Assembly: GCA_951813565.1 (NCBI GenBank)
Contig: OX638351.1
Span: 3,328,001 to 3,392,000, forward strand
Direction: 5' to 3'
Length of the DNA: 64,000 nt
Source of the DNA: an uncultured Poribacteria bacterium
Lineage (GTDB): Bacteria; Poribacteria; WGA-4E; WGA-3G
The notes beneath the pieces were generated by a model that saw nothing but the letters and a program-made list of their open reading frames with translations, did not search any database and was not told the DNA's origin. The position numbers and the translations under genes are program-made. Below are positions 18,231 through 22,893 of this stretch, in pieces. Each line of letters begins with the position of its first letter. Within the stretch, counting starts at the first letter, position 1.

Positions 18231-19646
18231 ATGAAACAAATTTTTCAAAAAACATCCATCCTTTTACTGCTTTTCACATTTATTACAGCAAACGCCAACG
18301 CAGCGCACAACTGGACAGAACAGATTGCCAGTTTTAAACCGATGGTAGTGAATGTCGAAACTGCTTCTGAGGTTGTCTTCGAAACGGAATCAAAAGGCAC
18401 AAGCTTCGCTACCGGTTTCGTAGTTGATGCAGAACGTGGGATTATCGCCACGAACCGACATGTTACAGGCAGCAGTCCTGCCTATGTTAAAATCAACTTT
18501 CATGATGGTAGCTTTACAGAAGCAAATATTCTTTACTATGACCCAACGCACGACTTCGGATTTTATAAGATTGATCCTGCTGAAGTTGATTTTGAACTGC
18601 AAGCCGTTGAACTTGGTGAATGGGATAAACTCGCGCTCGGCGATGAACTACTGCTGATTGGCAACAACGAAAAAGAGGAATATTCTATCAAATTTGGTAC
18701 GATTGCGAACCTCAATGTCAACAAAGGTGATAGACATTCAAGTTACATCCATACCACGTTCGACAGAACAGGCGGGTCAAGTGGTAGTCCTGTATGGAAC
18801 ACCGCGGGCGAGGTTATTGCTATCCATGCACGCGGAACAGACACCTCCAGTTTTGAATTACCCATTGATTACCTTATTGATGCGCTGGAATTAATTCAGA
18901 ACGAGATGCCTATTCAACGTGGCGAAATCGGTGTTGATCTTGAACTTATCTCCATTGGAGAAGCCATAAAACATTTTAATTTTCCAGAGGTTTTACGCAA
19001 AGAGATTGGTCCTTCCAAAGCTGGCACACCGAAAGTTATTCAGGTAGAATCTATGGTGCCGCGGACAACAGGTGAAACCATCCTCCGAGCATCCGATATT
19101 ATCTATCGCATTAACGATGAACTTATCCGAGATGATTTATACACCTTTGATGCTATTCTGAATCAGAACGTCGGTAAAGAAGTCACTTTGGACATCTACC
19201 GTAATGGAGAAAACCTCAGTCTTCAGGTGCCCGTAGAGAATTTAGAGAAAAAGAAAGTTCAGAGATTCGTTCGATTCGGTGGTGCTGTTTTTCACGACAT
19301 AACGCCGCAGCTGCGTCGGTTGCTCTACTTGGAAGCTAACGGTGTCTATATGCCCCATGCCGCTGCGGGTAGTAGTTTTTCACGTGTCGGTGTACAAGAG
19401 CGGAACGGTAATTCTAAGGTGGTTATTCTTGATGTAAATGGAAAGCAGATTCGGAATCTGGACGATTTCATTGAGGCATGCAAAACCATTACCGATGGAC
19501 AACACACTTATGTTGTTGTCCGAGATTTCAATCTGTTTGACAGCTCCCCAACCCCGAAAAGTTTAACGGTCAACCTTAAATTCGGTCCATTGCAACAATT
19601 TAAATGGGATTCTGAGAAGTTAGATTGGGAAGAAGTAGTTGAGTAA
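18231..19646 (+). CDS. Secreted trypsin-like serine protease with PDZ domains (HtrA superfamily, Nma111/DEG7-like)
   Basis: Signal peptide; 'ATGFVVDAERGIIATNRHV', 'YYDPTHDFGF', 'GGSSGSPV'; two PDZ-like regions. Confidence 0.85.
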   Translation: MKQIFQKTSILLLLFTFITANANAAHNWTEQIASFKPMVVNVETASEVVFETESKGTSFATGFVVDAERGIIATNRHVTGSSPAYVKINFHDGSFTEANILYYDPTHDFGFYKIDPAEVDFELQAVELGEWDKLALGDELLLIGNNEKEEYSIKFGTIANLNVNKGDRHSSYIHTTFDRTGGSSGSPVWNTAGEVIAIHARGTDTSSFELPIDYLIDALELIQNEMPIQRGEIGVDLELISIGEAIKHFNFPEVLRKEIGPSKAGTPKVIQVESMVPRTTGETILRASDIIYRINDELIRDDLYTFDAILNQNVGKEVTLDIYRNGENLSLQVPVENLEKKKVQRFVRFGGAVFHDITPQLRRLLYLEANGVYMPHAAAGSSFSRVGVQERNGNSKVVILDVNGKQIRNLDDFIEACKTITDGQHTYVVVRDFNLFDSSPTPKSLTVNLKFGPLQQFKWDSEKLDWEEVVE

Positions 19647-20203
19647 TACCAAATTAACGGGATTTATCGCATTTTCCGGACGGTAGGTGCGGTTTCCTAA
19701 ACGCTCCATAACTGTCAATTTAAGAAAAAAAGCGTAGTCGCGCAATTCATTGCCAAATCAACGCCAAGCGCACTTGGGCGAATACGCCAAATCAACGGTC
19801 CGAATCATGGCGAATGCCGGACGGGGAATGCCAAAGGGCATTCATACCCGGTGAATGACTAAAGACGAATGCGCTTTTGGCATTCGCCATGATTCATACC
19901 GTTGATTTCTTGATTTGGCGCATTCGTCTTTAGGCACTCCCCGTGTGGTATTCGCCATGACTTGTCGCCTCGGACATTCTGTAGGAGCGAGCTCCAGCTC
20001 GCGACCGGGAGGTCGCTCCTACAGAAGAAAATCGGGGTTGAAAACCCGCCAAATGCCAAAAAGCGCATTTGGCGTTGATTTGGCAGCATGCCAAACGCGC
20101 ATGCTGCGTTGATTCGCTCCCACAAGAGGGTATATCCTTAAATTGACGCATAAGGCGCGTTTTCCTAACTGCTCCATAAATATGAATCAAGTTAATGTGG
20201 TAT
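19646..20203. repeat. Composite nested palindromic element: MITE-like ends, GTAG REPs and micro-hairpin units
   Basis: Outer IR ATACCAAATTAAC / GTTAATGTGGTAT; inner IR GTCAATTTAAG (19714) / CTTAAATTGAC (20137); REP GTAGGAGCGAGCTCCAGCTCGCGA at 19981; many modules shared with MITE B. Confidence 0.75.
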
Positions 20204-20563
20204 AAGAAAACGCGCTAAAATAAAAGTAAACGAACCTTTTATTTTTAGCTATGTCTAATTGAAAATGAGGGCAATTGATTTTCGCCCAGATTTAGGTCAC
20301 CGCTTCCTTCAAGAGGAATTCAAGGTCATCCGATATTGAATGCCTTTTAAGAGTTAGATTCTTCTTTCTCATTTTAGTAAAATTCAGTATACTCTTACCA
20401 TTGATTGCGAGCGTGGTCAAGAGTTTCTTCACTTACAGAATCCCAATGGGTAGATTCTATTATCCGATGCTGACCCTGCGCGTTGTGGACTCGGATTCCG
20501 TCTTGATCCAGGCGATGGCTCGGGTTACGCGTTTCTTATTCATCATTTTTTGAATAAAAAACT

Positions 20564-20591
20564 TTGACATCACCAAATAATATTGTATAAT
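20564..20591 (+). promoter_or_regulatory. Consensus sigma70 promoter
   Basis: TTGACA-16 nt-TATAAT upstream of RBS AGGAGG (20701) and ATG 20716. Confidence 0.7.
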
Positions 20592-20715
20592 GTATACAAT
20601 TTGCTGGATCAGTAAAGATTGGTATGGTAGAATGGGTGCAGTTTATTCAAGCTTATGTAACTTAACGCGAAACTCACGTAAAAGTGAGATTCATTTTTAT
20701 AGGAGGTTGAACGGC

Positions 20716-21411
20716 ATGAAAATTATATTGGTATTAGTAGGATTTGTGTTGATGATAGCCTATTCTGTTATCGGCACGAGCGACATGGCACAGGCGGAGG
20801 AAGTCTTGGGAGTAGGAACGGATTCGCTGCTCGGAGGAGACCTAACCGACCCAGAAGACGATGGTAATCCTGAAGCAGATGACGGTTACGACGCCATTTT
20901 CACTGCCAACGATGAACCTGGATTCGCTGGCGGGGAATTTGCGTTTAACGTCTTTGATAACACCCTTGGCCCCGGCAATGCCAAATGGTGCTGAGGACGT
21001 GCAGGCGGCATTCCGGAGGAAGGCCTACACATTACAGCTGAGTTTGAGGAGCCGTACGCATTGACACACTTCACCGTATCTTCAGCGAACGATGTTCCTG
21101 CGAGGGACCCTACAGTGTGGGAGGTTCAGGGGTCGAACGACGGCGAAGATTTTACGACTATCTATGCTCACGACGGGGACAGTTTTTGGGATCAGCGACT
21201 GCAAGTCGTCCTTTTTGAGGCAGGGGTAGATTACGACGTTCAAAAAATCGGATATCGGTTTTTTCGGCATGTTACTTTTGACACCGTAGCGAACCCGGCT
21301 GGGGCGTACTTTCAAATTGGCGAAATTGAGTACTTCGGCGATGATAGTTATCCCGTAGACCCTAAAGCCAAGGTCACAACCACATGGGGAAGCATCAAAA
21401 ACATCCGATAA
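20716..21411 (+). CDS. Secreted discoidin/F5-8-like protein with an in-frame TGA (candidate selenocysteine at codon 93) and a C-terminal TWG motif
   Basis: ORFs 20590-20994 and 21061-21411 share a frame, separated only by TGA at 20992-20994 (AKWC*GRAGGIPEEGLHITAEFEEPYALTHFT). Signal peptide; 'WEVQGSNDGEDFT', 'FQIGEIEYFG'; tail VDPKAKVTTTWGSIK. Confidence 0.75.
20995..21030 (+). promoter_or_regulatory. Putative bacterial SECIS element
   Basis: GTG-C-AGGC-GGCA-TTCC-[GGA]-GGAA-G-GCCT-A-CAC hairpin directly after the TGA; the G-starting apical loop lies 20 nt downstream. Confidence 0.5.
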
Positions 21412-21433
21412 ACACAAATATCGGACATTTTCT

Positions 21434-21573: not shown

Positions 21574-21957
21574 ATGGAATTCCTCAATGACCATCGTGCT
21601 TGGAAGCAGAATGATACTAATCCTCCGTTTGGTGCGGTAAAAATCGGCACTTGGTACTGGATGAAGGCTGAAATATCAGACGATGGTTTTACGGGCAAAA
21701 TCTGGGAAGATGGCGAAGCAGAACCGAGAGATTGGCTCCTTGAAAGCGCACTTGGTTTTGGTGGTCTTAGACCGAAAAGTGGTCAAGTGGGTCTAAATGG
21801 AGGATCAAGCAGTGATCCGCCTGGGCTTACGGTTGTATCATTTGATAATTGGACGATCTGCGAAACAGCTGATGAGTGCACACCGGATGAGATTCTTGCT
21901 GTTCAAGCAGCTGGCAAACTTCCAACGGTTTGGGGAGTACTCAAAGCGCACTATTAA
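21574..21957 (+). pseudogene. C-terminal fragment of a secreted lectin-like beta-sandwich protein with a TWG-like tail
   Basis: No signal peptide or clear RBS; 'GTWYWMKAEI', 'SGQVGL', 'VSFDNW'; tail AVQAAGKLPTVWGVLK. Confidence 0.6.
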
Positions 21958-22047: not shown

Positions 22048-22893
22048 TCAAAATTGTAGTTCAGCAGAGATAAAATCCGAAGCGAAACGTTCTTCATAAA
22101 TTCGGGCGTAATTTATATATACATCAATAATTCGCAGGCCAACACCACCAGTTAAAGCACCGTTTGAACTGCCAACCCGTAGAGAAAAAAACGATGACGG
22201 AGTCCATTCGACACCGAAATAAAACTCCGGTTCTGCATCTTCGGTAGAGAGGGCAATGTCTGCGGAGAATTGATATGAAGTATAACGATAGGCGATGCCG
22301 AGTGTCACCCATTGAATACCGCGTCCGTCAAGGTTTTGCAACAGACATCCGAATTTGAGTTCTGGACGCGGTTTGAAAAGCAAACCGATGTCGTAAGAGG
22401 TATGGTATCCAAAGAATTGGTAATAATCGGACGGGTGCTGTCGTTTGAATTTGAGGCTTAATCCTGCAGCAAAATACGCACCGAGTTGACGTGCAAAACT
22501 ATAGTAATTAAAGTCAGGAATGCCATTTGCCACGTCAATAGCAATCTTATTTCCCCAATAGAGACTGTAGCCGCGCCAACTATAGCCAACACCTTTCGGA
22601 TCGAACCGATAATAGTGTCGATCATGAAACTTGGTAACACCGAAAAGCTTAACACCCTGCCACTGAATTAATCCTGCAGGATTCCAAAAACCGGCGGTCC
22701 CATCGTCAGCGACAGCAGTAAAAGCATTCCCCATCGCCAATGCGCGAGCACCTACATAAAGCGGACGCGCCGTTTCAAAAGGAAATTCTGTCTGTCCTAA
22801 AACAGGTGCCGTTAGAAAAAGAAAACAAACAGTAAAAAAACAGAAACGAGATTTCTGTAAATAACGTCCTGAACCCCCTATTTCAATCATCAC
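22048..22893 (-). CDS. PorV/FadL-like outer-membrane beta-barrel protein
   Basis: 'VGARALAMGNAFTAVADDGTAGFWNPAGL' N-terminal signature, amphipathic beta strands, C-terminal Phe. Confidence 0.8.
   Translation of the reverse strand: MMIEIGGSGRYLQKSRFCFFTVCFLFLTAPVLGQTEFPFETARPLYVGARALAMGNAFTAVADDGTAGFWNPAGLIQWQGVKLFGVTKFHDRHYYRFDPKGVGYSWRGYSLYWGNKIAIDVANGIPDFNYYSFARQLGAYFAAGLSLKFKRQHPSDYYQFFGYHTSYDIGLLFKPRPELKFGCLLQNLDGRGIQWVTLGIAYRYTSYQFSADIALSTEDAEPEFYFGVEWTPSSFFSLRVGSSNGALTGGVGLRIIDVYINYARIYEERFASDFISAELQF

Follow-up and report, generated by a model that had tools for sequence, protein, structure and literature searches.

A probable selenoprotein with a CBM32/discoidin-type fold and an adjacent Cys-Sec pair in a sponge-symbiont Poribacteria bacterium

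Bacterial selenoproteins are overwhelmingly thioredoxin-fold proteins or metallo-enzymes. In genes such as fdhF, selD, and those for Prx-like UxxC proteins, an in-frame UGA is decoded as selenocysteine (Sec, or U) with a selenocysteine insertion sequence (SECIS) situated just 3' of the codon. Adjacent Cys-Sec redox centers are known from the C-terminal GCUG of mammalian thioredoxin reductase and the SCUG of selenoprotein N. Here, we describe a gene at positions 20716 to 21411 of a 64,000-nucleotide (nt) stretch of DNA (the window; positions 3,328,001 to 3,392,000 of contig OX638351.1, assembly GCA_951813565.1) from a sponge-symbiont bacterium, Candidatus Poribacteria, whose genome is a single contig of 5.43 Mb. 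The sequence makes it very probable that this is an intact selenoprotein gene in which the UGA at codon 93 is decoded as Sec via SelB and a SECIS. It shares with the described bacterial genes an in-frame UGA on a conserved Cys, Cys-form paralogs, a hairpin loop beginning with G at 17 to 20 nt after the UGA, and a genome coding for SelA, SelB, SelD, and tRNA-Sec, but its product is a predicted CBM32/discoidin beta-sandwich and not a thioredoxin-like or enzyme fold. The adjacent C-U followed by G (WCUG) resembles the centers of thioredoxin reductase and selenoprotein N, but it is internal to the beta-sandwich of a predicted exported protein, and there are no flavoprotein, thioredoxin-fold, or redox domains in the protein or its fused relatives.

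A 2026 review tabulates 119 prokaryotic selenoprotein families (PMC13188914), and its Table 1 lists the CU motif for SaoL, SaoC, HgcA, MbdU, KCU-star, and the Csac_0668 2Fe-2S protein. The window protein has the CU motif in common with these entries but differs from them in fold and domain partners. No F5/8 type C/discoidin (PF00754) family is among the 119 in that table, and the text of the review has no mention of discoidin, carbohydrate, Poribacteria, secreted, or sponge; the same words are absent from the paper on BSepDB (PMC13326102), its family Table S2 lying outside this check. No NCBIfam model matched the window protein at E≤0.1, so none of the NF-numbered models that Table 1 of the review gives for most CU families matched it either. 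Titles and abstracts in the literature yielded no report on selenocysteine in Poribacteria or on a bacterial discoidin selenoprotein, and nothing useful was found on vicinal disulfides in carbohydrate-binding modules. We are confident that the gene is a real selenoprotein gene of a family absent from the 119-family catalog, as judged from its Table 1. A preliminary description of this DNA had called such a protein unusual. This holds for the lectin-type fold and the family but not for the motif, since adjacent CU and exported selenoproteins are already known in bacteria.

Four features, all on the forward strand, are as follows:
20716..21411 (+), the selenoprotein gene, with ATG at 20716 and TAA at 21409-21411; 231 codons plus stop, with predicted readthrough at codon 93.
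20989..20991 (+), the Cys92 codon TGC; the Cys is invariant in the close-homolog alignment and in a deeper 46-sequence alignment.
20992..20994 (+), UGA as probable selenocysteine, codon 93; aligned to an invariant Cys, with a recurrent TGA and with Sec machinery in the genome.
21007..21025 (+), a SECIS-like hairpin, GGCAUUCC[GGA]GGAAGGCC, with its loop at 21015-21017 and with synonymous invariance specific to the Sec forms.

As the preliminary description had observed, there is a single TGA directly after a Cys codon with open frames on both sides: the codon at 20992-20994 is the only internal stop in the frame and lies immediately 3' of TGC (context K-W-C-U-G). A protein search gave 290 relatives, of which the 120 listed are 213 to 258 amino acids (aa) long, and those bearing names belong to Candidatus Poribacteria; full-length homologs are 227 to 238 aa. 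Residues K90, W91, C92, C93, and G94 are invariant in the alignment of the query with 32 homologs (33 rows), with both Cys residues conserved throughout, and the prediction that homologs would carry KWCC was thus correct. Among the best 80 of 339 confirmed related genomic loci, which hold 86 instances of the motif, the codon pair is TGC-TGC in 78, TGC-TGA in 6, and TGT-TGC and TGC-TGT in one each.

The TGA recurs widely in the phylum. With a first nucleotide pattern, which extended into the hairpin, 12 loci were recovered. A second pattern specified codons only up to TGAGG and nothing downstream, and is therefore free of bias toward a SECIS; with it, 21 other Poribacteria assemblies in genome_contigs yielded 27 loci, two each in six assemblies, and metagenome_contigs yielded a single contig, which is 99% identical to the window. 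The same codon is thus TGA well beyond this assembly, and the concern that it might be unique to it does not hold. In 27 of the 29 copies, the window included, a start codon is followed by a frame of 211 to 238 aa that is open, apart from the TGA, as far as a normal stop; of the other two, one runs off its contig and one is without an identified start.

These copies fall into two types. Type 1 (KWCUG[RP]xGG[IF]P[EA]EGLH) comprises 13 loci, the window, and the metagenome contig, and type 2 (KWCUG[PF]xx[LT]LP[AE][GE]GIH) comprises 14 loci and is shorter by one residue in the interval from the Sec codon to the hairpin. In a DNA tree built from 110 unique sequences, 28 Sec and 82 Cys (all Cys rows being drawn from the best 80 loci), type 2 forms a clade with 99% SH-aLRT support. 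A pattern describing type 2 with Cys in place of Sec had no matches in genome_contigs; as a positive control, the TGA version of the pattern matches 14 of the 29 Sec copies locally. At least three changes of the Sec/Cys label are required on the tree, and label shuffles never give so few; the tree is unrooted and gives no direction to these changes. Sec branches are long, with end branches of up to 0.14 and one internal branch of 0.16 substitutions per site. We also note that Sec and Cys forms can stand side by side: in another Poribacteria genome (OZ244889.1, around 2339400-2344700; loci L061, L097, L119, and L120), Cys, type 1 Sec, and type 2 Sec forms are in tandem, and at L074 and L096 a Cys form is followed by a Sec form.

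The simplest competing account is that the TGA is a nonsense mutation or an assembly artifact and the gene is dead. It has some initial appeal, as TGC to TGA is a single base change, the great majority of related instances (78/86) carry TGC-TGC, and an intact Cys paralog (L004, 84% identity) is present in the same genome. We nonetheless give it almost no weight. The 27 loci come from SPAdes, megahit, and long-read chromosome assemblies, which excludes a shared sequencing error, and the copies are 80 to 93% identical, which excludes one shared contaminating sequence; their frames are otherwise open and the Sec branches long. In 11 full-length type 1 Sec forms, the ratio of nonsynonymous to synonymous substitution rates (dN/dS, Nei-Gojobori) is 0.22 over codons 28-92, 0.21 over codons 94-231, and 0.19 over codons 108-231, and 82 Cys forms give 0.23, 0.25, and 0.26 over the same intervals, showing that the sequence downstream of the TGA is translated and under purifying selection at the protein level. 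Confirmation in reads, which the preliminary description had proposed, comes from run X1, in which a 496-nt DNA contig with two differences keeps the A at 20994; this contig and the recurrence of the TGA in 21 further assemblies rule out a chance or assembly event. Word depth for the gene family overall is very high in sponge-associated RNA libraries. In metatranscriptome X18, three contigs cover 20981-20994, two with C and a third (word depth 1645) that keeps the A; this is weak support for transcription of a Sec form, because these are contigs and such libraries can hold DNA.

The genome has what is needed to decode UGA as Sec. SelA is found with 525 bits, the SelB gene directly adjoins tRNA-SeC(tca), and SelD has its own in-frame TGA (context VKCAGUASKL), so that all four of selA, selB, selC, and selD, for which the preliminary description had advised a check, are present. 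The codon is not reassigned genome-wide, because TGA ends 440 of 2265 long open reading frames (ORFs). Of 176 genomes of the phylum, 171 have a SelA match that exceeds the Pfam cut-off, in a few cases only weakly. A scan of the genome for TGA-readthrough ORFs with coding-like codon usage gave 119 candidates, and of 19 of these submitted to Pfam, 16 matched families: AhpC/TSA at five loci (one with two TGAs), a thioredoxin-dockerin protein, DUF3179, three HMA domains (GMTUxxC), ThiF-rhodanese, formate dehydrogenase, GRDB-like, UGSC, and Thioredoxin_2 (a thioredoxin-TPR protein), with a MazG match that is doubtful. There are about 17 other loci of known selenoprotein families in the genome, which is rich in selenoproteins. 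Three paralogous C-U proteins of 517 to 678 aa (two with DE[SA]CUGSGK and one with DESCUANGK) have no Pfam match. Their genes (L132, L133, and L145) are at 2853089-2854669 and 2855966-2858002 (+) and 1717410-1718963 (-) of the genome, with perfect or near-perfect hairpins 23 to 24 nt downstream of the TGA.

The SECIS-like hairpin lies 12 to 30 nt after the UGA and has a stem of eight positions with one A.G mismatch; the loop GGA at 21015-21017 starts 20 nt after the UGA, in agreement with the G-starting loop seen in the preliminary description. Its most telling property is constraint at synonymous sites. Third-position diversity over codons 98-104 is 0.000 in the Sec forms, the lowest of any seven-codon window of the gene (flanks, 0.26 to 0.36), and across these codons only the last base of the loop varies (GGA or GGC); the corresponding value in the Cys forms is 0.314. 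The hairpin 19-mer has a minimum free energy (MFE) of -6.7 kcal/mol in 11 of 11 Sec forms, whereas the 82 Cys forms average -2.4 (range, -6.7 to -0.3). The Cys paralog of the same genome (L004) has an MFE of -1.4, and in L021, a Cys form that groups within the Sec clade, the hairpin differs by three synonymous changes and has an MFE of -1.0 versus -6.7. Type 2 genes keep the core CCUUCC[GGN]GGRAGG, its loop starting 17 nt downstream of the UGA, despite coding for different amino acids there, and in L127 an Ile-to-Phe change turns the A.G mismatch into U.G. These comparisons indicate that RNA-level constraint on the hairpin is specific to the TGA forms and that the hairpin has decayed in the Cys forms. 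The hairpin also resembles those of the 17 strongest readthrough candidates of the genome (14 with Pfam families and the three C-U proteins without), which have hairpin scores of 7.0 to 12; all but one of their loops begin 16 to 24 nt after the UGA, the exception begins at 12 nt, and several read GGA. On the same scale, the window gene scores 8.5 with its loop at 20 nt. The SECIS hairpins of this genome have a structure in common and almost no common sequence.

Several observations weigh against the selenoprotein reading. The hairpin taken alone is not statistically unusual: its MFE of -10.1 kcal/mol corresponds to a z-score of -0.83, 41 of 200 shuffles fold as well, and an equal or better crude hairpin score is reached at 6.5% of 20,000 random in-frame long-ORF positions of the genome. 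In 26 unique Sec sequences, RNAalifold retains no more than a 4-bp core and an outer GCUG/CAGC stem, and this outer stem is present in the Cys forms too. Covariation is weak: 85.1% of cells in the eight-position stem are paired versus at most 66.8% for slid-partner controls, but double changes are seen in only two pairs, each in one sequence, a level reached by 42 of 500 shuffles. Rfam gives no RNA family, and hence no SECIS family, either over the region (E≤10) or in the whole window at the gathering score. The difference in 19-mer MFE between Sec and Cys forms (Mann-Whitney, p = 6e-8) carries no correction for phylogeny, one or more of the 82 Cys forms equal the Sec forms in stability (the minimum being -6.7), and the invariance among Sec forms partly reflects shared ancestry because these forms are related. 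RNA libraries X9 and X16, which may also contain DNA, have only C at 20994, as in the Cys paralogs, and are uninformative about expression of the Sec form. Finally, the protein scores 27.5 bits with Pfam PF00754 (F5/8 type C), just under the cut-off of 28.2. The SECIS-like hairpin of the preliminary description is accordingly retained for its position and for a constraint confined to TGA forms, but not as an exceptional structure in itself, and the covariation check proposed there gave pairing above the slid controls but double changes within the range of the shuffles.

These weaknesses of the hairpin are also what would favor passage of the UGA without Sec, either by readthrough with a near-cognate tRNA (Trp or Cys) or by termination with separate expression of the downstream part, as the hairpin is not significant alone and matches no Rfam SECIS family. 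We regard this as very unlikely. The UGA falls exactly on an invariant Cys, a classic Sec/Cys pair, in a genome where the Sec system is complete and some 17 other selenoprotein loci have hairpins of similar size (16 of 17 scored at similar spacing), and the seven-codon RNA constraint is found in TGA forms only. Separate expression of the downstream part is further opposed by in-frame conservation of the 22 codons that separate the TGA from TTG at 21061, the earliest potential start downstream.

The protein fold, according to structure prediction, is a galactose-binding-domain-like beta-sandwich of the CBM32/discoidin type. An AlphaFold2 (AF2) model from the 46-sequence alignment has a mean predicted local distance difference test score (pLDDT) of 88 and values above 90 over residues 31-210; it replaced a first model from 33 close homologs with a pLDDT of 61. 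The best Foldseek matches are CBM32/discoidin domains, including those of GH92 mannosidase 7nsn, muskelin, and the Clostridium perfringens GH89 and GH84C CBM32s, with a probability of 1.00 and a TM-score normalized to the target of up to 0.77 (4a41). Many close homologs have a precomputed PF00754 match, and 36 of 51 long relatives match at E≤1e-5. A profile search of PDB sequences gave only the 7nsn/GH92 CBM32-like domains (E = 4e-21), over profile positions 107-218, the C-terminal two thirds, and no PDB sequence match covers the KWCC/KWCU segment or the conserved N-terminal LGxGTxxLLGGDLTDPEDDG. The protein is thus like the CBM32/F5/8 type C modules of C. perfringens GH89 and GH84C and the Neobacillus novalis GH92 mannosidase (7nsn) in fold, but different in these two segments and in its Pfam score (27.5 versus 28.2). 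By fold it is a sugar-binding-type protein, and carbohydrate binding by the module is putative.

The module (query residues ~28-210) is found in 1377 representative proteins at E≤0.001 and in 178 at E≤1e-30, often in one to three copies and within proteins of up to 2802 aa. Among 182 module copies in the top 149 representatives, Cys is present at column 92 in 170 and at column 93 in 169 (~93%). A cluster search with a natural Cys homolog gave only F5/8-type clusters of Poribacteria and Latescibacterota. In 51 long relatives the partner domains are TSP3 repeats (19), Laminin_G_3 (12), PEP-CTERM (PF07589; 5), FBA (4), and PA14 (4), with no redox or metal-handling domains among them. Cys92 and Sec93 would be the sole Cys-type residues of the mature window protein.

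The remaining features of the gene are as follows:
20564..20591 (+), sigma-70-type promoter, TTGACA-16 nt-TATAAT, with 12/12 consensus positions matched.
20701..20706 (+), ribosome-binding site AGGAGG, 9 nt upstream of the ATG.
20716..20796 (+), signal-peptide-like N-terminus, residues 1-27, with AQA as its end before EE; predicted from sequence.
20800..21345 (+), KWCC-type CBM32/discoidin-fold module, residues ~29-210, from Pfam, AF2, Foldseek, and the module search.
21352..21408 (+), C-terminal tag PVDPKAKVTTTWGSIKNIR, a motif common to ~85 ORFs of the genome.
21404..21425 (+), terminator-like stem-loop followed by a T-rich tail.

The promoter, ribosome-binding site, signal peptide, and terminator named in the preliminary description are thus all represented, the last two as signal-peptide-like and terminator-like elements. 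The N-terminus has Lys2, a hydrophobic run, and A-x-A, and the AF2 model places a low-confidence helix at residues 2-21. The tag motif, [AP]V[ED]PxxKLxTTWGxIK plus one to six residues, has 86 matches in the genome, about 85 of which are the ends of ORFs of at least 80 aa, mostly 220 to 370 aa. No Pfam or NCBIfam model matches the tag, which looks like a lineage-specific sorting signal. Some homologs are named as PEP-CTERM sorting domain proteins at NCBI, a name that does not fit the window protein: there is no PF07589 or TIGR02595 match, and PVDPKAKVTTTWGSIKNIR is without a hydrophobic helix.

In the surroundings of the gene, an HtrA-like protease is coded upstream of the promoter (18231-19646), and the ~900 nt between it and the promoter (19650-20590) have short overlapping ORFs only and no Rfam match. 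The leader from promoter to ribosome-binding site (20592-20715, ~125 nt) contains a terminator-like stem, CTCACG...AGTGAG, at 20673-20688 followed by a T-run, and leader-like sequence is also present at loose ends of RNA contigs; this region may be an attenuator or a regulatory leader. The downstream neighbor, an ORF at 21574-21957 (127 aa), also carries the C-terminal tag (...AVQAAGKLPTVWGVLKAHY). The next gene but one (22048-22893, -; 281 aa) has weak N-terminal matches to PorV/PorQ families (E ~1e-11, far below the cut-off), and its product is possibly an outer-membrane partner of the tagged proteins. No metal-resistance genes lie directly beside the selenoprotein gene.

In the standard bacterial mechanism, the hairpin 12 to 30 nt after UGA93 would be bound by SelB carrying Sec-tRNA(Sec), and selenocysteine would be inserted in place of termination to give a 231-residue precursor. 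The N-terminal signal peptide would then export the protein, and the KLxTTWGxIK tag probably serves afterward in its sorting or attachment at the cell envelope. The mature protein is predicted to be a single CBM32/discoidin-fold module of the widespread, mostly extracellular KWCC family. Our best guess as to its chemistry, offered tentatively, is that Cys92 and Sec93 form a vicinal selenenylsulfide that serves as a reactive center for redox or thiol exchange. A more specific proposal, that the pair is a warhead for covalent capture, making reversible Se-S/S-S bonds with thiols, or binding soft metals, on host or matrix ligands, is one we hold to be improbable.

Two other accounts of the Cys-Sec pair deserve consideration. 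It could be a site for soft metals (Hg, Cu(I), As, or Cd) on an exported binding module and not a redox center, an idea we find rather unlikely. Three HMA-domain genes with GMTUxxC in the same genome favor it, but two adjacent ligands alone would make a strained chelate, the partner domains of the 51 long relatives are adhesin- or lectin-like with none that handles metals, and metal-resistance genes are not directly beside the gene. Also in its favor, the CU selenoproteins in the catalog's Table 1 are mostly linked to metals or organomercury (SaoL, SaoC, HgcA, MbdU, and the 2Fe-2S protein; PMC13188914). The pair could instead be a structural vicinal bond only, for example a platform for a sugar site, with Sec a near-neutral substitute for Cys. 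The coexistence of Sec and Cys forms in one genome, the three or more Sec/Cys changes on the tree, and the occurrence of the module in extracellular, oxidizing contexts are all compatible with such a role; we doubt it, in that costly Sec insertion is kept in two subtypes, one of which (14 loci) has no Cys counterpart in genome_contigs, and the SECIS stretch is strongly constrained. A reactive selenenylsulfide thus remains our preferred, if tentative, reading of the pair.

A secreted selenoprotein with a lectin fold broadens the uses to which selenocysteine is put. Since the Cys positions that Sec marks are reactive and critical to function, the KWCC pair would be the active center of a widespread extracellular module. 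Current annotation truncates the Sec forms at the TGA or splits them, and the secreted proteins of these symbionts are therefore under-described. The natural Sec/Cys paralog pairs within single genomes provide material for testing what Sec adds. Should the covalent-capture reading be true, the KWCC modules (1377 representatives, often with TSP3, LamG, and PA14 domains) would be a hitherto unrecognized class of redox-active 'covalent lectins', among which the Sec forms would be the most reactive.

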